Positions 7,446 through 62,597 of a DNA stretch of 64,000 nt are shown piece after piece. The notes under the pieces were generated by a model that saw only the letters and a program-made list of their open reading frames with translations, did not search any database and was not told where the DNA came from. The position numbers and the translations under genes were made by a program. The DNA comes from an uncultured Bacilli bacterium (GTDB lineage: Bacteria; Bacillota_I; Bacilli_A; RF39; UBA660): assembly GCA_934167465.1 (NCBI GenBank), contig CAKPKR010000003.1:2992-66991 (forward strand). The letters run 5' to 3'. How positions within the stretch are numbered: position 1 is the first letter of the stretch; the number at the start of each line of letters is the position of its first letter.

Positions 7446-8228
7446 ATGAAAATATATTTAGATATGATATTTATGCTTAATTTTTGTTTTGATTTTATAT
7501 TATTATTAAGTGTATCAATCGTATTAAGAAGAAATATTAGTATTAAAAGATTACTGTTAGGCTCCACTTTAGGTGGATTAAGCATATTTGTATTATTTAT
7601 GAAAATAAATAGTTTTGAGCTTTTTTTGATTAAATTTGTAATTAGTTTGTTGATGTTACTAGTAACATTTAAATATAAAGATTTAAAATATACATTAAGA
7701 AATTTAGGATTTCTATACATTAACAGTATTCTTTTGGGTGGATTCTTATATTTTTTAAACATCCAGTTCTCGTACAAACAAGAAGGGTTAGTATTCTATC
7801 ACAATGGATTATCAATTAATTTTATATTTTTAATCATAATTTCACCAATAATAATATATATTTATATAAGACAAGCTAAGTCTTTGAAAAATACTTACTC
7901 TTTATATCATAAAGTAAATATATATTTTAATAATAAGGTATATAAAGTAAATGGATTTTTAGATACCGGAAACAAACTAAAAGATCCAATTACAAATAAG
8001 CCAGTAATAATATTAAAAGATAATATAATAAAAAATATAAATGATTATTATCTAATTCCATATACAACAATAAAAGAAAATGGATTAATAAAATGTATAA
8101 AAGTAGACAAAATTGAAATTAGTGATGTTGGTATTAAAGAAAATGTATTAGTTGGATTTATAAAAAATTTAAAAATGGAAGGAATAGATTGTATTTTAAA
8201 TACAACTATAATGGAGGGAAAATGTTAA
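7446..8228 (+). CDS. spoIIGA: sporulation sigma-E processing peptidase SpoIIGA
   Basis: Several transmembrane helices are followed by FLDTGNKLKDPITNKPVIIL, an aspartic protease DTG motif in a SpoIIGA-like context. The gene sits directly upstream of the pro-sigma-E gene. Confidence 0.75.
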   Translation: MKIYLDMIFMLNFCFDFILLLSVSIVLRRNISIKRLLLGSTLGGLSIFVLFMKINSFELFLIKFVISLLMLLVTFKYKDLKYTLRNLGFLYINSILLGGFLYFLNIQFSYKQEGLVFYHNGLSINFIFLIIISPIIIYIYIRQAKSLKNTYSLYHKVNIYFNNKVYKVNGFLDTGNKLKDPITNKPVIILKDNIIKNINDYYLIPYTTIKENGLIKCIKVDKIEISDVGIKENVLVGFIKNLKMEGIDCILNTTIMEGKC

Positions 8229-8914
8229 AGAAATTATTATATAAAATATTAAGATATTTTAGAGATGAGAATAATATGTTTTTTATTGGTAGTACAGATA
8301 AACTGCCAGAACCACTTTCAAAAGAAGATGAAGTTTATTATGTAACAAAATCTATGGATGGTGATGAATATGCCAGAAGTAAATTAATAGAACATAATTT
8401 AAGATTAGTTGTTTTCTTATCTAAAAAATATGAAAATACAGGAGTTGATTTAGAAGATTTAGTAAGTATTGGAACAATAGGTTTAATAAAAGGTGTAAAT
8501 ACATATAAATTAGATAAAAATATTAAGTTAGCAACTTATGCCTCTCGTTGTATAGATAATGAAATATTAATGTTCTTAAGAAAGAATAAAAAAAGAAGAA
8601 CTGAAATTTCTTTTGAGGATAGTTTGAGTTATGATTCAGAAGGGAATGAATTACATTTAGAAGATATACTTGGAACTGAACCTGATATAGTAACAAAAGG
8701 AATTGAAAAAGAAAATGAAAAAAAATTATTAAGTATGGAAATTAGTAAATTGAATGCTAGAGACAAACAGATAATGACTTTGAGATATGGATTAAATAAT
8801 AATGAAGAAATGACTCAAAAAGATGTGGCAAATGTTTTAGGAATAAGTCAAAGTTATATTTCGAGAATTGAAAAAAAGGTTATTAGAAAATTAAAAGGTT
8901 TGATCAAAATGTAA
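8222..8914 (+). CDS. sigE: sporulation sigma factor SigE (pro-sigma-E)
   Basis: NLRLVVFLSKKYENTGVDLEDLVSIGTIGLIKGVNTY, KLATYASRCIDNEILMFLR and QKDVANVLGISQSYISRIEK match Bacillus SigE almost residue for residue. The gene is adjacent to spoIIGA. Confidence 0.85.
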   Translation: MLKKLLYKILRYFRDENNMFFIGSTDKLPEPLSKEDEVYYVTKSMDGDEYARSKLIEHNLRLVVFLSKKYENTGVDLEDLVSIGTIGLIKGVNTYKLDKNIKLATYASRCIDNEILMFLRKNKKRRTEISFEDSLSYDSEGNELHLEDILGTEPDIVTKGIEKENEKKLLSMEISKLNARDKQIMTLRYGLNNNEEMTQKDVANVLGISQSYISRIEKKVIRKLKGLIKM

Positions 8915-9047
8915 GTAAGTAATTCCTTTTTTTGTATTGTTTTTTTTAATGTTTATAATAATAAAAAGATGTAAATAAAAAAATGATGTCTTGCAATATG
9001 TAATATATTTATTATATAATAAAATAGAAAGGTAGTAGTGAAGTAGT
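8915..9047 (+). promoter_or_regulatory. shared promoter and leader module, copy 1 (TTGCAA-18-TATAAT plus conserved 5' UTR ATAGAAAGGTAGTAGTGAAGTAGT-ATG)
   Basis: A module of about 130 bp recurs almost identically upstream of the genes at 9048, 10055 and 49682. The -35 is at 8991-8996 and the -10 at 9015-9020. Confidence 0.55.
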
Positions 9048-9917
9048 ATGAAAAAAATGTTAAGAAGCAGAATTTTTTTGGTAATAGTAACATTAATAAT
9101 AGGAATAAGTGGAACATTATATGCAGCAAACTCATATAACGCAAATGCTATTGTTTATAATTCAAGTGATGGAACAAGTAAAAATGTAAATGAAGCTTTG
9201 AATGATTTATATACAAAAAGTAAAAAAGAATATTATGTAAATGGATTAGTAGCATATTATAATCCTGTAACAGGATCAAAATGTAAAGTAAGCGAAGCAA
9301 CATCAAATACAAATAGCAAAGGAACATATACAGAGGTAAAAACAGGATGTATGAAATGGTATATTTTTAAAGAAGATTTTGATAATTATACAATGATATT
9401 AGATCACAATACTACTGCAAGAATAAAATGGAATGATAATAATGTAAATGTATCTTATGAAAATAGCAATATTAAAGCCGAAGTAGATAAGTTAGTAAGT
9501 GTCTCAAAATGGAAAAATACTCCTAGATTAATTACAGCAAATGAATTATCCAAAATAACAAATAATTCAACTTTTAATGATTCAGTTGAAAATAATTGGT
9601 ATTTTTTTGATAGTAATAGTCATAATCAAACTGCTACATCAAAGGGTGCAAGCACTTATTCTTGGCTATATGATTATACATCTTCTTGTTCAAGTTGGGG
9701 ATGTAATGTGGAAGATAATAATTATTATACTGGCGTTGGTACATCAGGAACTGGTTATTTTTATGGATATTGGACATCAACAACAAGGGGAACAGCTGGT
9801 GCTGGATATGCTGTTTGGGATGTTTTCCATCATGGTAATTTAGATGGTGGTGATGCTAATTATGATGCACGTGGTATTCGCCCAGTTATAACAATTTCAA
9901 AAACAATATTAAAATAA
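9048..9917 (+). CDS. variable secreted protein family member A0 (conserved N-terminal module plus DUF1566/Lcl-C-like C-terminus)
   Basis: The N-terminal 60 aa are shared with the genes at 32462, 33087, 33715, 41108, 42438, 52511 and 61881. The C-terminus, YWTSTT...AVWDVFHHGNL...ARGIRPV, fits the DUF1566 / FGE-fold ending. Confidence 0.6.
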   Translation: MKKMLRSRIFLVIVTLIIGISGTLYAANSYNANAIVYNSSDGTSKNVNEALNDLYTKSKKEYYVNGLVAYYNPVTGSKCKVSEATSNTNSKGTYTEVKTGCMKWYIFKEDFDNYTMILDHNTTARIKWNDNNVNVSYENSNIKAEVDKLVSVSKWKNTPRLITANELSKITNNSTFNDSVENNWYFFDSNSHNQTATSKGASTYSWLYDYTSSCSSWGCNVEDNNYYTGVGTSGTGYFYGYWTSTTRGTAGAGYAVWDVFHHGNLDGGDANYDARGIRPVITISKTILK

Positions 9918-10054
9918 GGAAGTAATTCCTTTTTTTGTATTCTTTTTCTAATAATAGTTATACTAATAAAAAAAGATGTAAATAAAAAAATATTGTCTTG
10001 CAAAAAGTAATACAATTAATGTATAATTGAATAGAAAGGTAGTAGTGAAGTAGT
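9918..10054 (+). promoter_or_regulatory. shared promoter and leader module, copy 2
   Basis: Same module. TTGCAA is at 9998-10003 and TATAAT at 10022-10027. A small AGGAA-gtaa-TTCCT-T7 terminator lies at its 5' end. Confidence 0.55.
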
Positions 10055-11698
10055 ATGAAAAAAGGATTTACATTAATAGAATTATTGGCAGTAATAGTGA
10101 TATTGGCAGTAATAGCATTAATCGCAACACCAATAATATTAAATGTAATAGAAGAATCAAAAAAGGGAGCCGCTGAACAATCAGTAATCGGATATGTAAA
10201 CGGAATAGAGAATAATGTTTTAGTATCAGAATTGGATAATAGTTCTATAGAAGATGGAAGTTACAATATAAATGAAATAGAAGTAGAAGTAAAAGGAAAT
10301 AAACCTGATAGTGGGAATATAACAATAGAAAAAGGAATAGTAGTAGATGCAGTAATGTGTATGAGTGGATATAAAGTAATATATTCAAATAGTAAAGCGG
10401 AAGTCCAAGGAAAATGTGAAGGAAATCTAGTATATAGTGAAGGTATTTTAAATGGAACAGATCCAGTATTAGGTGAAAATATGATACCAGTAACAATAGA
10501 AAAAGATGGAACAGTAAAATATGCAGATATAAATAAGAAATGGTATAGTTATGGAAATAAAGAATGGGCAAATGCAGTAATATTAAATACAAGTAATAGT
10601 TATAATGTAGGAGATATAATACCAGAAAGTGAAATAGAATCATATTTTGTGTGGATACCAAGATATAGATATAAATTATTTAATGTAGATAATACAAGTA
10701 AAGATTCAAAAACATATACAAATTATAAAGATATACCAAGTAAAGCAGAGGAAATAGAAATAGTATTTGAAAATAAAGAAACAAAAATAAGTAACGGAAA
10801 TAAAAATGGTGAATATTTAATGCATCCAGCTTTTACATCATTTGAAAGTAATGGAATGTGGGTAGGAAAATTTGAAACAGGATATAAAGGAGCAACAACT
10901 ACTTCAACAGCTCAAGTAAACTCAAATGATTCTACAAAAGTAATAGTTAAACCAAACGTTTATAGTTGGAGAAGTATAACAGTAGGAAATATCTTTTTAA
11001 CAAGTTATAATTATAAAAGAGATTTGGATTCACATATGATGAAGAATACCGAATGGGGAGCAGTAGCATATCTTTCACATTCAAAATATGGAATAAATAG
11101 TGAAGTAAGAATAAATAATAATAGTGCACATATAACAGGTTATGCAAAGACTGAACAACCAACTTGTGGTTGGACAAATAGTAATGAAGAATGTAATAAG
11201 TTTGAAAGTACGGCTTTAAATCAAGATGGAACATATACAAAAAGATATAATACCGAAATTGGATATTTAGCAAGTACAACAGGAAATATAACCGGAATCT
11301 ATGATATGAGTGGCGGATCTAATGAATATATGGCAGCCTATATGGCAGGACAACTAGGAAATAGTGGACTAATACCAACCGATTATGATTCAAAATATTT
11401 TAATGTATATAATTCATCAAGTACAGTAACAAGTTATCAATATCGCATCTTAGGAGATGCAACTGGAGAAATGGGACCATTTACAAATTTAAAATCAAGT
11501 GGAAGTGATGGAGACAAAACCTCATATGCATCAAGTTGGTATGCCGACCGTTCGAACTTTGTTGACTCTGGTAGCCCTTGGTTCAACCGAGGCGGCGATT
11601 ACGGCCATGGTGTAGTTGCAGGTCAGTTCAACTTCCTTAGGAGCCCGGGTGGTACTTACAGTTACGTTGGCTTCCGCCTAGTTTTAACACCTCAATAA
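10055..11698 (+). CDS. type IV prepilin-like N-terminus fused to an FGE-sulfatase/DUF1566-like domain protein (paralog B1)
   Basis: MKKGFTLIELLAVIVIL is a class III prepilin signal: G then F, with E at +5. The middle and C-terminal parts, TEWGAVAYL, GIYDMSGGSNEY, RGG...VGFRLV, resemble the FGE-sulfatase fold. Confidence 0.6.
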   Translation: MKKGFTLIELLAVIVILAVIALIATPIILNVIEESKKGAAEQSVIGYVNGIENNVLVSELDNSSIEDGSYNINEIEVEVKGNKPDSGNITIEKGIVVDAVMCMSGYKVIYSNSKAEVQGKCEGNLVYSEGILNGTDPVLGENMIPVTIEKDGTVKYADINKKWYSYGNKEWANAVILNTSNSYNVGDIIPESEIESYFVWIPRYRYKLFNVDNTSKDSKTYTNYKDIPSKAEEIEIVFENKETKISNGNKNGEYLMHPAFTSFESNGMWVGKFETGYKGATTTSTAQVNSNDSTKVIVKPNVYSWRSITVGNIFLTSYNYKRDLDSHMMKNTEWGAVAYLSHSKYGINSEVRINNNSAHITGYAKTEQPTCGWTNSNEECNKFESTALNQDGTYTKRYNTEIGYLASTTGNITGIYDMSGGSNEYMAAYMAGQLGNSGLIPTDYDSKYFNVYNSSSTVTSYQYRILGDATGEMGPFTNLKSSGSDGDKTSYASSWYADRSNFVDSGSPWFNRGGDYGHGVVAGQFNFLRSPGGTYSYVGFRLVLTPQ

Positions 11699-11730: not shown

Positions 11731-11889
11731 ATTTAAAAATTATCAACATTTATTTTTAAATTATATTTAATAAATTTGTCGAAATTTATATGTTAAAAAG
11801 TGAATGAAAAAAAGCAAAAATGTAGTAAAATATAAAGCGATATATTTAATTGGTGTTGGTGCATTCCTCCATTATGAGGAGGTGGTATT

Positions 11890-11967
11890 ATGTCTAAAAG
11901 AGAAATTTCCTTTTTCATTATAATACTTCTATTATTTTTTATAATAATTACTTTATTATATAGATAA
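11890..11967 (+). CDS. 25-aa hydrophobic peptide MSKREISFFIIILLLFFIIITLLYR (candidate type I toxin)
   Basis: A strong Shine-Dalgarno sequence, GGAGGTGG, lies inside a CCTCC...GGAGG hairpin. The ORF is conserved in three copies. Confidence 0.5.
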   Translation: MSKREISFFIIILLLFFIIITLLYR

Positions 11968-12082
11968 TAAAATAAGCACTATCACAGGGGGTAGTGCTTT
12001 CTAAATACAATTTGGAATGTATCTAACTCTATCAACAATTAGATATATCCTTTTTTTATTGTATGAGTAATAACTCATCTAT
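11968..12082 (-). ncRNA. predicted antisense sRNA (candidate antitoxin)
   Basis: A minus-strand promoter, TTGAAA-17-TAATAT, is at 12115-12087. The transcript would terminate at the hairpin AGCACTATC...GTAGTGCT plus a T-run, reading in the minus orientation. Confidence 0.4.
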
Positions 12083-12220
12083 ATACATATTAACATTTTT
12101 AAAATATTTTTTCAATAATATTTTAAAATAATTTATAAATGAAATTTTTTATAATTTAATAAGAAATATTGATATATGTTTTTCATCCATTTTATGGTAA
12201 AATAATAATTGGTGGTAAGA

Positions 12221-22914: not shown

Positions 22915-23045
22915 ATAATACTTTTTTTTGTCGGAATTTGTATGTTAAAAAATGGATAAACAAAAACTAAAATGTAGTAGAATATAAAGCGATATATTTA
23001 ATTGGTGTTAGTGCATTCCTTCTAGAATAAGAAGGCGGTGATATT

Positions 23046-23123
23046 ATGACAAAAAGAGAAATATCTTTATTTTTAATAATAATTCTATTATTTGTTATAA
23101 TTTTTATTTTATTATATAAATAA
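23046..23123 (+). CDS. 25-aa hydrophobic peptide MTKREISLFLIIILLFVIIFILLYK (candidate type I toxin)
   Basis: The Shine-Dalgarno sequence AGAAGGCGGTG is sequestered in the hairpin CCTTCT-agaata-AGAAGG. Confidence 0.5.
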   Translation: MTKREISLFLIIILLFVIIFILLYK

Positions 23124-23236
23124 AAAAATGCACTATCACAGGGGGATAGTACTAACTAAAAAACCATTTAGGAATGTATCTAATTTTTAGAACAATTAGA
23201 TATATCCTTTTTTAATTATATGGGCATTACTTATCT
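23122..23236 (-). ncRNA. predicted antisense sRNA (candidate antitoxin)
   Basis: The minus-strand promoter has TTGAAA at 23271-23266, a 17-nt spacer and TATTAT at 23248-23243. A terminator hairpin at 23130-23152 is followed by an A-run on the plus strand. Confidence 0.4.
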
Positions 23237-23336
23237 ATATACATAATAACATTTTAAAAATATTTTTTCAATAATTTTATGTAATTTACGAATATAAACA
23301 AAATAGACTTTTTAACAAAAATTTGATACAATTTTA

Positions 23337-32407: not shown

Positions 32408-32438
32408 TTGACAAAAACGTCTGGGGGGGGGGTATGAT
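32408..32438 (+). promoter_or_regulatory. poly-G promoter of A1: TTGACA, spacer with G10 at 32423-32432, TATGAT
   Basis: The spacer is 19 nt. The homopolymer lies exactly between the -35 and the -10. Confidence 0.7.
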
Positions 32439-32461
32439 ATTGATAGAAAGTAGGAATCTAG

Positions 32462-32917
32462 ATGAAAAAAGTAATAAAAAATAGAATGTTTTTGGTGATT
32501 ATAATAACTATCATAGTTACTAGTGTAAGTGTATATGCCGCAACCACATATAAAGCAACAGATGTAATATATAAAGCAAGTGATGGAACAAGTATGAATG
32601 TAAATGATGCTTTAAATGAATTATATAATAAAAGTAATAATACAGGATATCCTGATATTAAAATTTATTATGATTCAGGTTGGGGTGGTGGTACTTGTCA
32701 AGCATTTGCTAATTTTAATATACCTAAAGGGTATAATTATTTAGAAGTAATACCACCATATGTTAGTTCTGAACATAGTTCATCTATGGAAGGAAAAATA
32801 ATTTCTCTTAATCAAAAGATTAATGTTTCGGAAAAAGATAGTGTACGAGTAAATGTATATAATGAAGCTACTAGTGGAGCTTGTAGAGCAAATGGTACTA
32901 TTGTACTTAGTCATTAA
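32462..32917 (+). CDS. variable secreted protein family member A1
   Basis: The conserved N-terminus MKKVIKNRMFLVII...YAATTYKATDVIYKASDGTSMNVNDALNELYNK is followed by a variable C-terminus. Confidence 0.65.
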   Translation: MKKVIKNRMFLVIIITIIVTSVSVYAATTYKATDVIYKASDGTSMNVNDALNELYNKSNNTGYPDIKIYYDSGWGGGTCQAFANFNIPKGYNYLEVIPPYVSSEHSSSMEGKIISLNQKINVSEKDSVRVNVYNEATSGACRANGTIVLSH

Positions 32918-32924
32918 TTTTATA

Positions 32925-32975
32925 ACTATATTTCAATTATTATTATTATTATGAATAAAGGTTTTTAGAACCTTT
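32925..32975 (+). terminator. terminator after A1
   Basis: AAAGGTTtttagAACCTTT is followed by a T-run. An (ATT)5 microsatellite lies just upstream. Confidence 0.5.
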
Positions 32976-33032
32976 TTAAATTTTATTATTATTTTTTATA
33001 TAAAGTTTTTTTCACAATTTTTTGAAAATTTC

Positions 33033-33063
33033 TTGACTTTTACGTCTGGGGGGGGGGTATGAT
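33033..33063 (+). promoter_or_regulatory. poly-G promoter of A2: TTGACT, spacer with G10 at 33048-33057, TATGAT
   Basis: The spacer is 19 nt. Confidence 0.7.
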
Positions 33064-33086
33064 ATATCTAGAAAGTAGGAATCTAG

Positions 33087-33551
33087 ATGAAAAAAATAAT
33101 GAAAAGTAGAATATTTTTAGTAATTATAATAACTATCATAGTTGCTAGCGTAAGTGTATATGCCGCAACCACATATAAAGCAACAGATGTAATATATAAA
33201 GCAAGTGATGGAACAAGTATGAATGTAAATGATGCTTTAAATGAATTATATAATAAAAGTAATAATACAGGATATCCTGATATTACAATGTATCTTGATT
33301 CAGGTTATGTAGCAGCAGCTAATTGTGCAACCTCTGTTACTATTGATATACCTGATGGTTATAATTATTTAACTGTAACAACTACTGGTAATGTTTCACA
33401 AACTAAGATAGCAATGGATAGCACATATGTTACTTCTGGAGAGAAATATGATGTTTCAGAGAAAAATAGTATATTAATAAAAATTATACATTATAAAAAT
33501 TCTAGTGGTACGTATTCTAGAGCAATGGGAACTATTGTACTCAGTCATTAA
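33087..33551 (+). CDS. variable secreted protein family member A2
   Basis: A tandem paralog of A1 and A3. Confidence 0.65.
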   Translation: MKKIMKSRIFLVIIITIIVASVSVYAATTYKATDVIYKASDGTSMNVNDALNELYNKSNNTGYPDITMYLDSGYVAAANCATSVTIDIPDGYNYLTVTTTGNVSQTKIAMDSTYVTSGEKYDVSEKNSILIKIIHYKNSSGTYSRAMGTIVLSH

Positions 33552-33661
33552 TTTTTAGCTATATTTCAATTATTATTATTATGAATAAAGGTTTCTAGAA
33601 CCTTTTTAAATTTTATTATTACTTTTTATAAAATTTTTTTTTATAAATTTTTGAAAATTTC

Positions 33662-33691
33662 TTGACTTTTACGTCTGGGGGGGGGTATGAT
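33662..33691 (+). promoter_or_regulatory. poly-G promoter of A3: TTGACT, spacer with G9 at 33677-33685, TATGAT
   Basis: The spacer is 18 nt. Confidence 0.7.
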
Positions 33692-33714
33692 ATATCTAGA
33701 AAGTAGGAATCTAG

Positions 33715-34173
33715 ATGAAAAAAGTAATAAAAAATAGAATGTTTTTGGTGATTATAATAACTATCATAGTTACTAGTGTAAGTGTATATGCCGCAACCAC
33801 ATATAAAGCAACAGATGTAATATATAAAGCAAGTGATGGAACAAGTATGAATGTAAATGATGCTTTAAATGAATTATATAATAAAAGTAATAATACAGGA
33901 TATCCTAATATTACAATGTACCTTGATTCAGGTTATGTAGCAGCAGCTAATTGTTCTGATTCCATTACTATTGATATACCTGATGGGTATAATTATTTAA
34001 CTGTAACAATTAATTATCCATCTATTGATACAATAAAGATGGATGGAACAATTATTACTTCTGGAGAAAAATATAATGTTTCTGAAAAAGAAAAAGTATT
34101 AATAAGTGTATCACAAATAAATACGGGTGGAACTTATGTTAGAGCAAAAGGAACTATTGTTCTTACTCGTTAA
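33715..34173 (+). CDS. variable secreted protein family member A3
   Basis: A tandem paralog. Its C-terminus is GTIVLTR. Confidence 0.65.
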   Translation: MKKVIKNRMFLVIIITIIVTSVSVYAATTYKATDVIYKASDGTSMNVNDALNELYNKSNNTGYPNITMYLDSGYVAAANCSDSITIDIPDGYNYLTVTINYPSIDTIKMDGTIITSGEKYNVSEKEKVLISVSQINTGGTYVRAKGTIVLTR

Positions 34174-40574: not shown

Positions 40575-40775
40575 TTCTATTTTTTTTTATATATTAGGAA
40601 AGTGCTTCCAAATTTTAAAAAAAAATATATGTTCTATTAAAAAAACTTTCTAAATTTTTGTCAGAATTTGTATGTAAAAAAAAAGATGAAAATAATAAAA
40701 AATATAGTAGAATATAAATCGATATATTTAATTGGTGTTAGTGCATTCCTTCTAGAATAAGAAGGTGGTGATTTT

Positions 40776-40853
40776 ATGACAAAAAGAGAAATATCTTTAT
40801 TCTTAATAATAATTCTATTATTTGTTATAATTTTTACTTTATTATATAAATAA
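40776..40853 (+). CDS. 25-aa hydrophobic peptide MTKREISLFLIIILLFVIIFTLLYK (candidate type I toxin)
   Basis: The Shine-Dalgarno sequence AGAAGGTGGTG lies in the hairpin CCTTCT-agaata-AGAAGG. Confidence 0.5.
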   Translation: MTKREISLFLIIILLFVIIFTLLYK

Positions 40854-40967
40854 AAAAATTGCACTATCACAGGGGGGATAGTGCATTCGCAAAACAAATT
40901 AGGAATGTATCTAACTCTTTAGACAATTAGATATATCCTTTTTTATTGTATGAGCAATAACTCATCT
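40854..40967 (-). ncRNA. predicted antisense sRNA (candidate antitoxin)
   Basis: The minus-strand promoter has TTGAAA at 41002-40997, a 17-nt spacer and TACTAT at 40979-40974. It terminates at the hairpin GCACTATC-acaggggg-GATAGTGC at 40861-40884. Confidence 0.4.
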
Positions 40968-41053
40968 GTATACATAGTAACATTTTAAAAATATTTTTTC
41001 AATAATATTATAAAATAAATTGCAAAATTTTAAAACGCGAACAAAATTTCTGC

Positions 41054-41083
41054 TTGACTTTTACGTCTGGGGGGGGGTATGAT
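41054..41083 (+). promoter_or_regulatory. poly-G promoter of A4: TTGACT, spacer with G9 at 41069-41077, TATGAT
   Basis: The spacer is 18 nt. The conserved upstream box is ACGCGAACAAAATTTCTGC. Confidence 0.7.
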
Positions 41084-41107
41084 AGTATTGGAAAGTAGGA
41101 ATTTATA

Positions 41108-41992
41108 ATGAAAAAAATAATGAAAAGCAGAATATTTTTAGTAATAATTACAATGATTATATGTATAAGTGGAACTTTATATGCAGCGGTCACATATAAA
41201 GCAACAGATGTAGTATATAATGCCAATGATGGAACAAGTAAAAATGTAAGTGAGGCTTTAAATGAATTGTATGAAAATTGTTCTATTACAAAAATATATC
41301 CAAAAGTAACAATAACTACAGAAGCAGATACTGTTATAGGCCAGACAGTAATTGCAACATTAATCAAAGATAAAGATGGAAATTCTCCTAAAGAAGAATA
41401 TGTAGTGAAGGGTACATTAACTAATAGTACAACTTTAGTGTTAAAAAAAATAGGAACTTATAAAATTACAGCAAGTTCTTCTGATGGATTAGAAAATTAT
41501 AGCGATGAAATAACTGTTCAATACGATAATGTATATAATATTAATTATACTGTAAAAAAATATCTTTTTAATAATAGTGATGTAACTGCAGTAACTGGAG
41601 GTTGGGGAGTGATGTGGGAGGCATCTGGTGGTACACCTGGAGCTTCAACGTCTGGTGGTACTGTTAATTCGACATTGTATTTAACTTCTGGATCATCGGG
41701 TAAAAAAGATATGTATGCGAAAAATTCAATTGATTTAACAGGATGGAAAAGAATTGTTATAGTATGTACATATTATAATAATTTAAATAATGGATGGGCA
41801 GGACTTCATTTATATCAACCTGGAGGTTATTGGAGTAAAGATGCTAAATTAGTTGTTGGAGATTTAGGAGCTTTTTCAGTTGGAACATTTACTTATGATA
41901 TTTCTAGTTCTAAATACCAAAAAGAAGTTAGATTTGCATTATTAGCGGCTAGAGTTGAATGGAAAATATCTAAAATATATTTAGAAAAATAA
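41108..41992 (+). CDS. variable secreted protein family member A4 (294 aa)
   Basis: The family N-terminus is followed by a long unique C-terminal region. Confidence 0.65.
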   Translation: MKKIMKSRIFLVIITMIICISGTLYAAVTYKATDVVYNANDGTSKNVSEALNELYENCSITKIYPKVTITTEADTVIGQTVIATLIKDKDGNSPKEEYVVKGTLTNSTTLVLKKIGTYKITASSSDGLENYSDEITVQYDNVYNINYTVKKYLFNNSDVTAVTGGWGVMWEASGGTPGASTSGGTVNSTLYLTSGSSGKKDMYAKNSIDLTGWKRIVIVCTYYNNLNNGWAGLHLYQPGGYWSKDAKLVVGDLGAFSVGTFTYDISSSKYQKEVRFALLAARVEWKISKIYLEK

Positions 41993-42384
41993 ATTTAATA
42001 GTAATTGTTTTTTAGATAAAAGAACCATCAATTTCAAAAATAGCAATTCTATTATAATAACTATGACAAATAAGATCAGAAGAATTACAACAAGGACAAA
42101 AAAATTGGTAATTATTACCATTATCATATAAATTTAATAAATCGTTAAAATTAGTACTGCATTTTTAAGAATTTAATATTATCATAACAATGTCGAAAGA
42201 CAAAGGAAGAAAAAGAAGACAAAACAAAAATCGTGGTGTAGTCTTCTTTTTTTATTGTTTTAAGACTCTTTCTGATAAATTTGCACATTATTTTATACTA
42301 TTTAATAAACTTTTACAAAATAATTTGCGAAAACATTGTATATATTAATTCGACAAAATTTACAAATACGAACAAAATTTCTGC

Positions 42385-42414
42385 TTGATTTTTACGCCTG
42401 GGGGGGGGTATAAT
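42385..42414 (+). promoter_or_regulatory. poly-G promoter of A5: TTGATT, spacer with G9 at 42400-42408, TATAAT
   Basis: The spacer is 18 nt. It has the same upstream box as A4 and A7. Confidence 0.7.
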
Positions 42415-42437
42415 CTAAGTAGGATAGGTGTTTATAG

Positions 42438-42926
42438 ATGAAAAAAATAATAAAAAGCAGAATATTTTTAGTAATAATTACAATGATTATATGTATAAGT
42501 GGAACATTATATGCCGCATCAACATACAAAGCAAGTGATGTAGTATATAACGCAAGTGATGGTACATCAACCAATGTTGAAAGTGCTTTAAATGATTTAT
42601 ATAATAAAACAAAAGAATATAGTAATAATTTTTTTCCATTTAATGTAAATTATGTATATAATAATTATATTGGTTCAACAAATAAAATAACATTTACTAC
42701 TACAATAGAAACAGGAAATATAGATATAACAAAATATAAAATAGTTGGTGGAACAACAAGAGTAGAACCATGGCTAAATACTCAAGGAAAATATATTGAT
42801 ACAACAAGTTCAATAATTAGTTGCAAAGAAGGTATTACGACTATAGAAATAACAGTAACAATTGATGCGGCATCTAGTCTAGCAGGACCCGTTAACTATA
42901 GCGGTGCAATATATAGAATTGAATAA
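42438..42926 (+). CDS. variable secreted protein family member A5 (162 aa)
   Basis: The family N-terminus is present. Confidence 0.65.
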   Translation: MKKIIKSRIFLVIITMIICISGTLYAASTYKASDVVYNASDGTSTNVESALNDLYNKTKEYSNNFFPFNVNYVYNNYIGSTNKITFTTTIETGNIDITKYKIVGGTTRVEPWLNTQGKYIDTTSSIISCKEGITTIEITVTIDAASSLAGPVNYSGAIYRIE

Positions 42927-49544: not shown

Positions 49545-49681
49545 TAGTTTTGACTACTTTTTTCTGTATTGTTTTTTTTATAATGTTTATAATAATAAAA
49601 AGATGTAAATAAGAAAATATTGTCTTGCAATACGTAATACGTTTATTATATAATAAGATAGAAAGGTAGTAGTGAAGTAGT
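49545..49681 (+). promoter_or_regulatory. shared promoter and leader module, copy 3
   Basis: A terminator, AGTAGT-tttg-ACTACT-T6, is followed by TTGCAA at 49625-49630, an 18-nt spacer, TATAAT at 49649-49654, and the 5' UTR identical to the copies at 9024 and 10031. Confidence 0.55.
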
Positions 49682-51328
49682 ATGAAAAAACAAGGATTTA
49701 CACTTATTGAGTTGTTAGCAGTTATCGTAATATTAGCTGTGATAGCTTTAATCGCAACACCAATAATCTTAAATGTAATTGAAGATTCAAAAAAGGGAGC
49801 AGCCGAACAATCAGTAATCGGATATATAAATGGAATAGAAAATAGTGTATTAGTATCAGAATTAGATAATAATTCATTAGATGATGGAAGTTATAATATA
49901 AATGAATTAAATGTCGAAGTAAAAGGAAATAAACCAAGTAGTGGTAATGTAACATTAGAAAATGGAATAGTAGTAGATGCTGTAATTTGTATGAATGGAT
50001 ATAGAATAAATTATGCAAATAGTAAAGCTGAAGTCCAAGGAAAATGTGATGAAGCATTAGTATATAGTGAAGGTATTTTAAATGGAACAGATCCCGTATT
50101 AGGTGACAATATGATACCAGTCACAATTGAAAAAGATGGAACAGTAAAGTATGCTGATATAAACAAAAAATGGTATAGTTATAGAAATAAAGAATGGGCA
50201 AATGCAGTAATATTAAATACAAGTAATACTTACAAAGTAGGAGATATAATACCAGAAAGTGAAATTGAATCATATTTTGTATGGATACCTAGATATAAAT
50301 ATAAATTATTTAATGTAGATAATACAAGTAAAGATTCAAAGACATATACAATATATACAGATGTACCAAGTAAAGCAGAGGAAATAGAAATAATATTTGA
50401 AAATAAAGAAACAAAAGAAAGTATAGGAACAAAGAATGGAGAATATTTAACCCACCCAGCCTTCACATCATTTGAAAGTAATGGAATGTGGGTAGGAAAG
50501 TTTGAAACAGGCTATAAAGGAGCAACTTCAACTACTTCAGCTCAAGTAAATAGTAATGATTTAAGTAAAGTAATAGTTAAACCTAATGTATATAGTTGGC
50601 GAAATATAACTATAAATAATATATTCTTAACAAGTTATAATTATAAAAGAAATTTAGATTCACATATGATGAAGAATACCGAATGGGGAGCAGTAGCATA
50701 CCTATCACATTCAAAATATGGAATTAATAATGATATAAGAATAAATAATAATAGTGCATATATAACAGGATATGCCAAGACAGAACAACCAACATGTGGA
50801 TATACAAATAGCAATGAAAATTGTAATAGATTTGAAAGTACATCATTAAATCAAGATGGGACATATACCAAGAGATATAATACGGAAATAGGCTATTTAG
50901 CTAGTACAACCGGAAATATTACGGGAATCTATGATATGAGTGGTGGGTCACATGAATATGTAGCAGCATATATGGCAGGAAACTTAGGAAGTAGTGGAAT
51001 AACACCAACCGATTATGATTCAAAATACTTTAATGTATATAATGCATCAAGTACACAAACAAGTTATCAATATCGAATTTTAGGAGATGCAACTGGCGAA
51101 ATGGGACCATTTACAAATTTAAAATCAACTGGGAGCAATGGTGTTAAGACAGCATATGTTTCAAGTTGGTACGCTTCCGACGCGAATTTCGTTGACTCTT
51201 CTTACCCTTGGTTCATTCGTGGCATCCATTTCATCGGTGGTGTACTTGCAGGTCAGTTCAACTTCGCTAGGAACACAGGAACTAATAATGGTTATATTGG
51301 TTTCCGTTTAGTTTTAACACCACAATAA
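49682..51328 (+). CDS. type IV prepilin-like N-terminus fused to an FGE-sulfatase/DUF1566-like domain protein (paralog B2)
   Basis: MKKQGFTLIELLAVIVIL is a prepilin signal. The protein is collinear with B1 throughout. The last 150 nt are GC-rich. Confidence 0.6.
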   Translation: MKKQGFTLIELLAVIVILAVIALIATPIILNVIEDSKKGAAEQSVIGYINGIENSVLVSELDNNSLDDGSYNINELNVEVKGNKPSSGNVTLENGIVVDAVICMNGYRINYANSKAEVQGKCDEALVYSEGILNGTDPVLGDNMIPVTIEKDGTVKYADINKKWYSYRNKEWANAVILNTSNTYKVGDIIPESEIESYFVWIPRYKYKLFNVDNTSKDSKTYTIYTDVPSKAEEIEIIFENKETKESIGTKNGEYLTHPAFTSFESNGMWVGKFETGYKGATSTTSAQVNSNDLSKVIVKPNVYSWRNITINNIFLTSYNYKRNLDSHMMKNTEWGAVAYLSHSKYGINNDIRINNNSAYITGYAKTEQPTCGYTNSNENCNRFESTSLNQDGTYTKRYNTEIGYLASTTGNITGIYDMSGGSHEYVAAYMAGNLGSSGITPTDYDSKYFNVYNASSTQTSYQYRILGDATGEMGPFTNLKSTGSNGVKTAYVSSWYASDANFVDSSYPWFIRGIHFIGGVLAGQFNFARNTGTNNGYIGFRLVLTPQ

Positions 51329-51508: not shown

Positions 51509-52381
51509 ATGCTTATGCAAATAGAAAAAAATACATTCTATACTTGTAAATATGATAGACCATTCAAAGAAATATTTTTAAATGAACAAAATAAACATTT
51601 ATTAAAAGGATTATTAGAAACAATACTAAAAACAGAAATTGATAAAATAGAACTAAAGCCAAGCGAATTAAATAGTAATAATATAAATATAAAAAGAAAA
51701 TATTTAGATGCATTAATATATGTAAAAGGTAAAAAAATAGGAATAGAAGTAAATTCAAATGCTGAAGAAAATTATTTAAGACCAAGAAATGCATCATTTA
51801 TATTTAATATATATTCATCACATACATTAGTAAGTGAAACATATGATGAAAAAACCGATATAATTCAAATTAATTTATCATATAACTTAAAAGATAAAAA
51901 GAATATAAGAATATATAAATTAAGAGATGAAGAAGGAAAAGAATATATTGAAAATTTATATATTTACGAAATAAATATGGATTACTATAGGAAACTATGG
52001 TACAATAAAAAAGAAGAAGTAAAAGAAGCAAAATATCTAGTAATGTTAGATTTAGAAGAAAAAGAATTAAAGGAATTTGCAAAAAACGATAGAGAGGTGA
52101 ATGAATATATGGAAAAATTGGAGAATTTAAATAGTAATCCAGAATTTTACCAATATATGACACACGAAGAAGATGAAAGAAAGATACACAACTCTATGAT
52201 GTATGAAGCAGAGCAAAAAGGTCTAGAAAAAGGTATAGAACAAGGTTTAGAACAAGGAATTGAAGAAGGAAAAAATGCCGAAAAAATAGCTACAGCGACA
52301 AACTTTAAAAATCTTGGCATAGATATTGAAACTATATCAAAAGCAACTGGTCTATCAAAAGAAGAAATAGAAAAATTATAA
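51509..52381 (+). CDS. Rpn/YhgA-family PD-(D/E)XK recombination-promoting nuclease (putative transposase)
   Basis: The N-terminus YDRPFKEIFLNEQNKH...DALIYVKGKKIGIEV is present. The characteristic C-terminal tail has KGLEKGIEQGLEQGIEEG repeats plus IATATNFKNLGIDIETISKATGLSKEEIEKL. Confidence 0.6.
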   Translation: MLMQIEKNTFYTCKYDRPFKEIFLNEQNKHLLKGLLETILKTEIDKIELKPSELNSNNINIKRKYLDALIYVKGKKIGIEVNSNAEENYLRPRNASFIFNIYSSHTLVSETYDEKTDIIQINLSYNLKDKKNIRIYKLRDEEGKEYIENLYIYEINMDYYRKLWYNKKEEVKEAKYLVMLDLEEKELKEFAKNDREVNEYMEKLENLNSNPEFYQYMTHEEDERKIHNSMMYEAEQKGLEKGIEQGLEQGIEEGKNAEKIATATNFKNLGIDIETISKATGLSKEEIEKL

Positions 52382-52455: not shown

Positions 52456-52487
52456 TTGACTTTTACGTCTGGGGGGGGGGGTATGAT
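52456..52487 (+). promoter_or_regulatory. poly-G promoter of A6: TTGACT, spacer with G11 at 52471-52481, TATGAT
   Basis: The spacer is 20 nt. This is the longest tract in the window. Confidence 0.7.
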
Positions 52488-52510
52488 AGTAATGGAAAGT
52501 AGGAATCTAG

Positions 52511-53122
52511 ATGAAAAAAGTAATAAAAAGTAGAATATTTTTAGTAATAATTACGATGATTATATGTATAAGCGGAACATTATATGCAGCTAATACATAT
52601 AAAGCATCAGATGTAGTATATAATACCAGTGATGGAACAAGTAAAAATGTAAGTGAAGTCTTAAACGAGTTATATGATAAATCAAATAACAATTCTGATT
52701 TAGAATTAATATATGATGCAATGGTTTCTAAAGGAGTAACACCATCTAGTAAAAAGATAGATGATATTATAATGGCAATCAAAACAAAGATGGGAGTTTC
52801 AACTCATATAGCATCTGTTAGATTTGCAAATAGAGCCACTAATAGTTCTTCATATACAAGGGGTAGAATGTATTTATATGACTCTAGTGGGACAGTACTA
52901 TCATCTAGTTGGGCAGAAGGATCAGGAGAATCAACAATTTATGGTGAGGATGTTAGAGTCAGTTCTGGTACAATTTTATATGCTGGTTTTTCATCAGCAT
53001 CTGATAAAAATACAAGAGGAATATTGCAGCTTGTTGTTGATGGAAATGTGGTAACATCTGTATTTGTTGAAACAAGCAAAGGAACGTCAAATACTAATAA
53101 AATTACAGTTTTGGATTCTTAA
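52511..53122 (+). CDS. variable secreted protein family member A6 (203 aa)
   Basis: The family N-terminus is present. Confidence 0.65.
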   Translation: MKKVIKSRIFLVIITMIICISGTLYAANTYKASDVVYNTSDGTSKNVSEVLNELYDKSNNNSDLELIYDAMVSKGVTPSSKKIDDIIMAIKTKMGVSTHIASVRFANRATNSSSYTRGRMYLYDSSGTVLSSSWAEGSGESTIYGEDVRVSSGTILYAGFSSASDKNTRGILQLVVDGNVVTSVFVETSKGTSNTNKITVLDS

Positions 53123-61383: not shown

Positions 61384-61437
61384 ATTATGAAATTTTTACA
61401 AAATTATCAAGAATTATTTTGTTTTTGTTCTAAATAA

Positions 61438-61790
61438 TATGTCGGAATTCGTATGTAAAAAATTAGATAAGAAAAATTAAAAATATGGTAGAATATTAAT
61501 CGATATATTTAATTGGTGTTAGTGCATTCCTTCTATAATAAGAAGGAGAGGTGGTCGTTATGAAAGAAAGAGAAAAACTCTATTCTTAATAATCTTCCTA
61601 CTATTATTTATAGTAATTATATTACTTTATAAATAAAAAAATGCACTATCACAGGGGGATAGTGCTTTCAAAACTTTTGGAATGTATCTAACTCTGAACA
61701 ATTAGATATATCCTTTTTTATTGTATGAGTAATAACTCATCTATATACATAGTAACATTTTAAAAAAATTTTTCAATAATATTATAAAAT
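61438..61790. repeat. type I toxin-antitoxin-like repeat, copy 4, with a disrupted peptide frame
   Basis: It has the same unit structure. The ATG at 61560 gives only MKEREKLYS before a stop. The LIIFLLLFIVIILLYK tail is in another frame. Confidence 0.65.
61560..61636 (+). pseudogene. frameshifted remnant of the 25-aa peptide gene
   Basis: See the repeat feature above. The hairpins and the antisense promoter, TTGAAA at 61776-61771, are retained. Confidence 0.5.
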
Positions 61791-61827
61791 AAATTGCAAG
61801 AATTTAAAACGCGAACAAAATTTCTGC

Positions 61828-61858
61828 TTGATTTTTACGCCTGGGGGGGGGGTATAAT
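61828..61858 (+). promoter_or_regulatory. poly-G promoter of A7: TTGATT, spacer with G10 at 61843-61852, TATAAT
   Basis: The spacer is 19 nt. It has the same upstream box, ACGCGAACAAAATTTCTGC. Confidence 0.7.
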
Positions 61859-61880
61859 CTAAGTAGGATAGGTGTTATAA

Positions 61881-62597
61881 ATGAAAAAAATAATAAAAAA
61901 TAAAATAATTTTAATAGTAATATTATGTATAATAAGTTGTGGTATAGGAGTATATGCTGCAACAACATATAAAGCAAGTGATATAGTATATAACGCAAGT
62001 GACGGAACAAGTATAAATGTAAATGATGCTTTAAATGATATTTATACAATCAAAACACAAGGTAATGCAACAGAAAATGATATTTTGAATGGAAAAACAG
62101 CTGTCGTAAAAGGAAAAATGATAACTGGTACATTTAAAAATAATTTTACCTTTGAAACAATAGAAAACCCGGTTGGTACATCTATTATGGATTATAATGA
62201 GAAAAGAAAAGATAAATATTTGACTTTTACACTAGGTGAAAGGTTAAGTTACAATGATACTAATTATTCTGATTATATGTGTTATATTTATCCTATAGAT
62301 TTAACTAATGTTTCAACACTCATCTTGTATCAATGGAATTATATATCGATGCATTTTACAGTAGCAATTTCATTATTTGATACTCCATTATATTCTAGGC
62401 AAGAAATAATAGATAATGCATTTGCAACGTGGACATATTCGACATCAGGTAGTAAAAAGGCATCTAATTACAATATTAAAGAAATTGATGTAAGAAATGT
62501 AACTGGTAAGAAGTATATCAATATTGCAGTTGTTAGTAAGAATAATTCTTCTGATGAATATTATATGCTTACTAAAAATATAATATCGTTTAATTAA
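61881..62597 (+). CDS. variable secreted protein family member A7 (238 aa)
   Basis: It is the most diverged family N-terminus: MKKIIKNKIILIVIL...YAATTYKASDIVYNASDGTSINVNDALNDIY. Confidence 0.6.
   Translation: MKKIIKNKIILIVILCIISCGIGVYAATTYKASDIVYNASDGTSINVNDALNDIYTIKTQGNATENDILNGKTAVVKGKMITGTFKNNFTFETIENPVGTSIMDYNEKRKDKYLTFTLGERLSYNDTNYSDYMCYIYPIDLTNVSTLILYQWNYISMHFTVAISLFDTPLYSRQEIIDNAFATWTYSTSGSKKASNYNIKEIDVRNVTGKKYINIAVVSKNNSSDEYYMLTKNIISFN

Follow-up and report, generated by a model that had tools for sequence, protein, structure and literature searches.

The gene A0, in a 64-kb stretch of DNA from an uncultured Bacilli bacterium (the window, analysed at its full length), probably joins the N-terminal module of one surface-protein family to the fixed promoter and leader of another, the type IV pilin-like genes pil1 and pil2; the combination was most likely reached by recombination between cassettes, and its product is likely to be exported and lectin-like. 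That product would be a surface or secreted protein made up of a 58-aa Sec-type signal, or handle, and an enlarged C-type-lectin-like domain of ~225 aa. In this species and its closest relative, the gene appears to have been uncoupled from the poly-G promoter of its family and placed behind a fixed, sigma-A-type pilin promoter and a leader of ~20 nt. Cassettes delimited by a terminator, the promoter block and the start codon may have been exchanged through homologous recombination or gene conversion, a route suggested by the probable junction at the shared start ATGAAAAAA and by the repetition of the block directly 3′ of A0, before pil1. Being behind a fixed promoter, A0 should be exempt from on/off switching and expressed along with pil1 and pil2. 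The mechanism is an ordinary one, recombination among surface-protein cassettes; the family is uncharacterised.

The promoter block and the modules of A0

A block of ~135 bp precedes A0, pil1 and pil2 (Table 1). The three copies aligned with a mean column identity of 89%, and over a core of ~98 nt the A0 copy matched the pil2 copy at 93% and the pil1 copy at 86% of positions (pairwise range 86–93%). The terminal 27 nt including the ATG, ATAGAAAGGTAGTAGTGAAGTAGTATG, were identical in all three copies; this sequence occurred exactly three times in the 64 kb even with three mismatches allowed, against 0.00 expected from shuffles. The leader of the block reads GAAAGGTAGTAGTGAAGTAGTATG. The first-pass annotation, made from the letters of the sequence, had placed the same block before all three genes, and alignment of 8915–9047, 9918–10054 and 49545–49681 upheld this for everything except the stretch GTAATTCCTTTTTTT of the hairpin/T-run part, which is common to the A0 and pil1 copies only; the pil2 copy has a different hairpin, AAGTAGT..ACTACTT, ahead of its T-run. 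The core conserved in other genomes spans ~95–100 nt, from ATAATAAT..AAAAAGATGTAAATAA through the ATG.

Within the block, TTGCAA-18 nt-TATAAT fits the sigma-70 (sigma-A) promoter at 10 of 12 positions, and its occurrences at 8991–9020 and 9998–10027 were the top two sigma-70-like sites between 8700 and 12300. The hexamers are conserved among copies: in six block copies taken from four genomes, neither the hexamers nor the leader varied, whereas six spacer positions and the 3–4 nt 3′ of the −10 hexamer did. Invariant hexamers around a variable spacer, seen in 6–8 copies from different genomes, are typical of a promoter. Site and conservation agree with the annotation's view that this motif and the leader, with no poly-G, drive the gene at 9048, as a candidate promoter.

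Three more metagenome contigs (L085–87) have the same core block and an identical leader ahead of a pil2 homolog of 83% identity, at a different chromosomal place, after two ABC-transporter genes. The block also precedes two genes with a pilin N-terminus in another collection (L101, L102), one of them pil2-like and the other (L101) a pilin fused to an A0-type domain. Outside the window the leader was seen only before genes with a pilin N-terminus, in these five contigs, which argues that modular pilin genes are where this 5′ region is native. A generic promoter found genome-wide was the alternative that the annotation had raised; within the DNA available, with three copies in the window and pilin-type genes behind it elsewhere, the block appears not to be a general promoter.

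The N-terminal ~58 aa of A0 recur in seven other open reading frames (ORFs), at 32462, 33087, 33715, 41108, 42438, 52511 and 61881, with 53–72% identity to A0 at the protein level and 70–75% nucleotide identity over 192 nt, close to the family N-terminus of 60 aa first annotated. The module comprises MKK..R, a hydrophobic core, YA/A and a conserved mature N-terminus of ~30 aa (..Y.A..VY..SDGTS.NV..LN.LY), and reads as a Sec-type signal with putative cleavage at YA/A. A profile of the module matched at least 1052 cluster representatives, always at residues 1–57; these proteins are small, and their remaining parts are diverse and mostly unannotated. All seven paralogs have the promoter TTGA(C/T)-N9-G(9–11)-TAT(G/A)AT (typically TTGAC-N9-G(9–11)-TATGAT), with the poly-G tract in the spacer, whereas no such tract lies upstream of A0, again as annotated. 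Because the spacer, 18–20 nt, is set by the length of the G-tract, slippage should change promoter strength as in known systems, and by analogy with these the poly-G paralogs may be phase-variable (on/off). We found no relevant literature on phase variation in RF39-type gut Bacilli. The mature N-terminus, in the form ..V.Y..SDGTS.NV..ALNELY, was also considered as a phage tail-fibre or spike motif and dropped, since PHROGs gave no support; one paralog had a weak Phage_spike_2 match (E 0.073).

The C-terminus of A0 had been annotated as resembling DUF1566/Lcl_C, a claim that failed at the level of hidden Markov models: neither the DUF1566 (Lcl_C) nor the FGE-sulfatase profile matched A0 even at E ≤1, and the domain had no significant Pfam, NCBIfam or PHROG match. 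Among 57 sampled homologs, six touched Lcl_C, all below threshold (best E 5.8e-4; P0029 reached 15.2 bits, the Pfam gathering score for Lcl_C (PF07603) being 34.9 bits), and two touched DUF6273, also below threshold. The fold part of the claim stands, by structure prediction: the predicted fold fits the solved Lcl C-terminal domain (PDB 8Q4E) and includes the core of a C-type lectin domain (CTLD), so the A0 domain is best described as putatively C-type-lectin-like and may bind a ligand. Four conserved cysteines (Cys79, Cys101, Cys214 and Cys219, two of them invariant and two nearly so) would fit an extracellular domain.

The homology search for A0 returned at least 1891 proteins with the domain. 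Those closest to A0 along its entire length have the same N-module, while many others combine a type IV prepilin N-terminus (PF07963) with the same ~225-aa C-domain; such pilin fusions made up at least 18 of the 57 sampled homologs, and one protein has the domain twice. A0 lacks the GFxxxE motif (the prepilin motif G-F-T-L-I-E is absent) and so is not itself a pilin. The annotation had also put the C-termini of A0 and of the pilin-like proteins in one fold superfamily. This agrees with the CTLD core found in the predicted fold, but there is no sequence relationship between the A0 and pil1 C-domains (hhalign probability 3%), and direct homology between them was rejected.

Module exchange in relatives and the origin of A0

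The closest homolog of A0, P0002 (84% identical in the domain), has a diverged pilin-type −10 and leader; the arrangement thus predates the split of A0 and P0002 and is no assembly accident. The exact A0 protein occurs on 19 contigs from several samples. The order sigE-A0-pil1 was found in all six places examined, one in each of six sample assemblies, with 0–7 mismatches over up to 3.3 kb, and longer contigs add upstream pnp or the start of mutS. Exchange is directly visible elsewhere in the lineage. Two genomes are 95.5% identical across ABC-transporter genes up to the terminator; one then continues with the pilin promoter and pilin N-module and the other with poly-G and the family N-module, before homology resumes at 72% in the pil1-type C-domain. 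The pil1-type domain was found with pilin, family and TasA-like N-termini, and both C-domain types, A0-type and pil1-type, occur with either N-module across the lineage. In sample L100, six single-nucleotide polymorphisms within 17 nt turn the spacer/−10 region of the A0 block into the exact sequence of the pil1 block, 1 kb downstream; this cluster, given as equivalent to window positions 9026–9042, is a gene-conversion tract in a natural population. One A0-type gene is behind a plain promoter (L084) and one in an operon behind a small pilin gene (L088). With poly-G in distant A0-type genes and mixed N- and C-modules in relatives, the annotated reassortment of promoters and N-modules among families is borne out.

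Several observations weigh against this reading of A0. In this AT-rich DNA, promoter-like sites between 8700 and 12300 were no commoner than chance (32 found, 29 expected), so that the promoter call rests on conservation rather than pattern and the block remains a candidate promoter; the count of its copies covers 64 kb of this genome. A terminator scan between sigE and A0 found none, and since the hairpin there is weak and AT-rich, read-through from the spoIIGA-sigE operon is possible. A0 had no significant profile match to any lectin family, and Foldseek against the PDB returned nothing significant. Lastly, domain identities to A0 do not clearly separate relatives with the family N-module (56–60%) from those with a pilin N-terminus (up to 57%), which makes the direction of the swap uncertain.

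We consider it unlikely, though deserving of attention, that the N-module was what moved, so that a gene with the pilin promoter, a pilin N-terminus and an A0-type domain exchanged its ~130-aa pilin module for the 58-aa family signal and its product passed from pilus-displayed to Sec-exported. A gene of just this composition, with the identical leader, does exist in L101, but its domain is only 40% identical to A0. Pilin fusions are frequent among A0-domain homologs, as noted above, and some come near the best family-N relatives in identity; on the other hand, the three nearest domain relatives after P0002 with known promoters all have the family N-module and poly-G promoters (L092/P0003, 59%; L093/P0013, 56%; L081/P0029, 50%). 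Pilin-type genes seem to be old at the site, because a pil1-related gene follows sigE in L008, L011 and L046. The block found between sigE and pil1 nevertheless stands on both sides of A0, with the coding-sequence junction at the shared ATGAAAAAA, and this fits insertion of an ORF together with a block better than an internal swap. The conversion tract and the cassette replacement were observed directly; for A0 itself, recombination that placed a family-N gene behind the pilin promoter is the likelier origin.

The position of A0 after sigE raises a second alternative, namely that A0 is sporulation-linked, transcribed with or replacing the third gene of spoIIGA-sigE-sigG (as a spore-surface lectin, for example), and that the block is incidental. 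In its favour, 133 bp and a weak hairpin are all that separate sigE from A0, which reads in the same direction, and the window has no sigG. The annotation had A0 sitting where sigG is expected, and comparison of the region downstream of sigE in relatives bore this out only loosely. A second sigma factor near sigE in relatives was best matched by SigG, but it directly follows sigE in L004 and L010 only; in many relatives it is 2–6 kb away, with uppS and membrane proteins between, and in the rest it is inverted or absent. Most relatives have housekeeping genes after sigE and three a pil1-related gene (one with a pil1-type C-domain in L008 and L011, and one matching only the pilin N-terminus in L046). 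Because the region 3′ of sigE varies in the lineage, the sigG point is weak. Moreover, A0-type genes in other genomes occur at unrelated sites (before secE-nusG or after nrdG, for example), and the hexamers of the block resemble sigma-A rather than the sigma-E, -G or -K consensus of B. subtilis. A sporulation role is therefore quite improbable. The site after sigE looks like a variable junction in which a pil1-type gene would be the old resident and A0 a newcomer between sigE and pil1, not a replacement for sigG.

The pilin-like genes and the genomic setting

That pil1 and pil2 are pilin-like, as annotated, was confirmed by PF07963 matches (1.5e-6 and 2.1e-7); what the annotation overlooked is that they are also variable proteins of the type diversified by diversity-generating retroelements (DGRs). 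FGE-sulfatase (PF03781) matched neither protein at E ≤1, and 14 of 45 pil1 homologs had weak matches to it (best 0.0019); homologs of the pil1 domain number at least 7992. Strong GC spikes occur in the window only at the 3′ ends of pil1 and pil2 (0.55 and 0.48; window mean 0.25), where the adenine fraction is 0.19–0.21 as opposed to 0.45 and the codon differences between the two genes (GGC/ATC, GAT/CAT, TAC/TTC) are typical of adenine mutagenesis. The two genes differ at non-adenine positions too, and the variable region (VR) of pil1 was identical in four samples. The 64-kb window has no template repeat (TR), reverse transcriptase (RT) or Avd, a degenerate VR/TR pattern had no match in Joint Genome Institute (JGI) metagenomes, and a scan of 80 sigE loci for A-biased repeats yielded no TR/VR pair. 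Because the window has no TR, Avd or RT, the VR is constant and some differences are at non-adenine positions, pil1 and pil2 seem either to be DGR targets of the past, since fixed, or to be targeted by an element that lies elsewhere in the genome and is seldom active. Two independent assemblies (L096, L097) end at window positions 11510 and 11375, at or just before the VR-like segment of pil1; these breaks could reflect within-sample heterogeneity or chance.

A DGR with a verified VR/TR pair is present in a related metagenome-assembled genome (MAG). In L089, a 160-nt template repeat, bAvd and a reverse transcriptase come after a pil1 homolog of 58% identity, and the VR and TR (11495–11654 with 11794–11953) have 15 mismatches, 14 of them at TR adenines, as expected of a DGR target. 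The cassette (L089 7533–13908, L090 7533–16346) is on an element with large serine recombinases that occurs twice in one 215-kb contig, with a Mob_Pre relaxase in one copy. The element also has a 121-aa ORF with a MutS_I domain between TR and Avd; the gene after pil1 in the window is a full-length mutS. At L089 9930–9975, a G8 run lies in a promoter-like region (TTGAAA-ATTC-G8-TATGTTATTAT) of the DGR-targeted pilin gene, so that homopolymer tracts are joined to pilin-type genes as well. Many metagenome proteins (P0128, P0131, P0140) join the pil1-type domain to a third N-module, MKKRSAIIVAIVFMMIGFAAVSTSLIINGNTKVSEN..., which recalls signals of the TasA/camelysin type.

DUF1566-type domains are known DGR scaffolds. 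The idea that A0 is itself a DGR target, with its C-terminal W.V...G.L......G(I/V)RPV region rewritten by a retroelement elsewhere, was rejected as very improbable: although the 3′ part of A0 at 9678–9857 is adenine-poor (0.24–0.28 against 0.46), the C-terminal region is the most variable one among distant homologs and A0-type genes directly follow the DGR reverse transcriptase in L089, the C-terminal segment differs from that of P0002 by one residue in proteins that are 21% different overall, the exact protein recurs on 19 contigs, and there is no template repeat for A0-type ends in L088–L090 or the window and no RT or Avd homolog in the window.

The window has a GC content of 25.3%. Its sigE is 67–83% identical at the protein level to genes in gut MAGs (human, rabbit and ruminant) that are labelled uncultured Bacilli, 'Tenericutes' or Mollicutes. 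The gene order around A0 is pnp, an NlpC/P60 protein gene, spoIIGA, the SigE-like sigma factor gene, A0, pil1 and mutS; matches to PF03419 and SigE confirmed the annotated identities of the genes directly upstream of the block, the sigma factor scoring 319.8 bits with its top NCBIfam match, SigE NF006158 (cut-off 339). The 64 kb yielded no SigG, no SigF and no clear SigK. The remaining window genes that were checked are housekeeping (ileS-like, tgt, pyruvate kinase, ffh and others), and the variable surface-protein genes, all on the + strand, therefore appear as single insertions between core genes. The window has no pilus-assembly genes, the variable genes adjoining housekeeping genes, and Rfam and tRNA scans of it gave no match.

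Table 1. Positions of the block copies, the A0 modules and other features in the 64-kb window
Feature	Position	Strand	Remarks
Block copy 1, before A0	8915–9047	+	alignment of three copies, conservation
Copy 1, weak hairpin and T-run	8915–8945		
Copy 1, conserved upstream element			AAAAAGATGTAAATAA
Copy 1, −35 TTGCAA	8991–8996		followed by 18-nt spacer
Copy 1, −10 TATAAT	9015–9020		
Copy 1, invariant leader	9024–9047		
Block copy 2, before pil1	9918–10054	+	hairpin AAGGAAGTAATTCCTT and T-run, right after A0 stop codon
Block copy 3, before pil2	49545–49681	+	alignment of three copies
A0	9048–9917	+	encodes family N-module and C-terminal domain
A0 N-terminal family module, aa 1–58	9048–9221	+	21 invariant columns among 8 paralogs
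A0 C-terminal domain, aa ~63–289	9234–9917	+	putative enlarged C-type-lectin-like domain, Lcl_C/IgAse N-terminal domain kind
pil1, modular type IV pilin	10055–11698	+	prepilin motif KKGFTLIE; ~420-aa FGE/C-type-lectin (CLec) C-domain
pil1 variable-region-like 3′ end	11500–11690	+	adenine 0.19 (0.45 in gene body); GC to 0.55
pil2, paralog of pil1	49682–51328	+	84% aa identity; VR-like 3′ end (~51130–51320) diverges most
spoIIGA (pro-sigma-E protease)	7446–8228	+	PF03419 Peptidase_U4, E 2.2e-48
sigE-like sporulation sigma factor	8189–8914	+	follows spoIIGA; stop codon abuts block copy 1
Divergent SigK/E-like sigma factor, 204 aa	36872–37486		115 bits, far under cut-offs; YebC-family gene adjoins
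Three tandem family paralogs	32408–34173	+	poly-G promoters at 32408, 33033, 33662
Two family paralogs	41054–42926	+	poly-G promoters at 41054, 42385
Family paralog	52456–53122	+	G11 promoter
Family paralog	61828–62597	+	G10 promoter

The three tandem paralogs repeat with a period of 625–628 bp, each with its own terminator, and have tracts of G10, G10 and G9. Inside the paralog at 41108–41992, a third GC spike (0.48; 41561–41721) encodes the Gly/Ser/Thr-rich GGWGVMWEASGGTPGASTSGGTVNS. Between pil2 and the next poly-G gene lies an ORF of a PD-(D/E)XK nuclease 'transposase' family (PF12784, 1.7e-10; 51509–52381). An intergenic element of ~350 bp occurs in four copies with 78% column identity (11770–12140, 22925–23295, 40655–41026 and 61436–61801), two of them directly upstream of poly-G promoters; Rfam gave no match. 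A conserved tiny ORF in it encodes a hydrophobic peptide (for example 11891–11968, MSKREISFFIIILLLFFIIITLLYR); a 5′ hairpin would mask the ribosome-binding site, two more hairpins lie downstream, and the whole looks like a type I toxin-antitoxin-like module.

Implications and comparison with known systems

The lineage consists of uncultured, reduced-genome gut bacteria with 25% GC whose surface biology is barely known, and it holds large families of lectin-like surface proteins for which there is no Pfam model. Variation reaches these families at three levels, through homopolymer promoters, through modular recombination and, in relatives, through DGR hypermutation. More tentatively, and as a possibility we would not yet favor, they may form a surface-display toolkit of three interchangeable cassette types, recombined at the terminator/promoter block and at ATGAAAAAA, with A0 as a locked-on recombinant. 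The promoter cassette may be a slip-strand poly-G promoter or the fixed pilin-type one; the display module may be a Sec-signal handle, a type IV pilin or a TasA-like signal; and the binding head may be Lcl-C-like or a DGR-diversified FGE-like domain, both of the C-type-lectin superfamily. If this is true, the same head could appear either on a pilus or as a secreted protein, under switchable or locked-on expression; A0 would have been kept because constant expression of a lectin is useful, and gene conversion of the block would be ongoing in natural populations. A0 also offers a natural experiment, because like proteins stand behind a non-switching promoter here and behind poly-G in relatives, so that the cost and benefit of phase variation become testable.

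Homopolymer tracts are known to vary promoters in Mycoplasma hyorhinis vlp (poly-A) and in Neisseria porA and opc (poly-G/C between −35 and −10). The seven paralogs with the A0 N-module share the vlp/porA architecture, having a G9–11 run in the promoter spacer, a conserved signal region and variable bodies, although switching of the paralogs is here only presumed. A0 differs from these systems in having no tract, which would make it the non-switching exception of its N-module family.

Expression-site shuffling in Mycoplasma (vsa of M. pulmonis, vsp of M. bovis) uses cassettes of promoter and signal peptide. Like vsa and vsp, the genes described here have a conserved 5′ cassette of promoter, leader and signal sequence joined to alternative bodies by recombination. 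In contrast to vsa and vsp, these genes showed neither an invertase nor inversion sites, and they share one orientation, each preceded by a promoter of its own; the pieces seem to have been traded by homologous recombination or gene conversion in the course of evolution rather than by programmed switching.

PilB and PilC of Streptococcus sanguinis are modular type IV pilins. Like these, pil1, pil2 and the pilin-fused A0-type proteins consist of a prepilin N-terminus and a grafted binding module, but the modules grafted here are of the CLec/FGE and Lcl-C types, and A0 is no pilin. In comparison with the DGR variable proteins TaqVP, TvpA and Mtd, which have the CLec/FGE fold, the window lacks TR, Avd and RT, pil1 and pil2 look frozen, and A0 is no target.

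For the A0 domain, the nearest known likenesses are two. The Lcl C-terminal domain of Legionella pneumophila (PF07603, PDB 8Q4E) gives no profile match to A0 and is about half as large; A0 also differs from Lcl in its N-terminus and in having no collagen-like stalk, and its binding of glycosaminoglycans or other ligands is putative. The N-terminal domain of the IgA peptidase of Thomasclavelia ramosa (PDB 9QA6) is 12% identical to A0 and is part of a large, sortase-anchored metallopeptidase with a structural zinc site, whereas A0 is a stand-alone domain behind a signal module. A0 would thus be a compact, stand-alone relative of a functionally unexplained domain of a gut IgA peptidase. Homopolymer promoters, modular pilins, CLec-fold DGR targets and cassette recombination are each known already; what is unusual is that, in one lineage and in uncharacterised families, promoter types, display modules and lectin heads combine freely.

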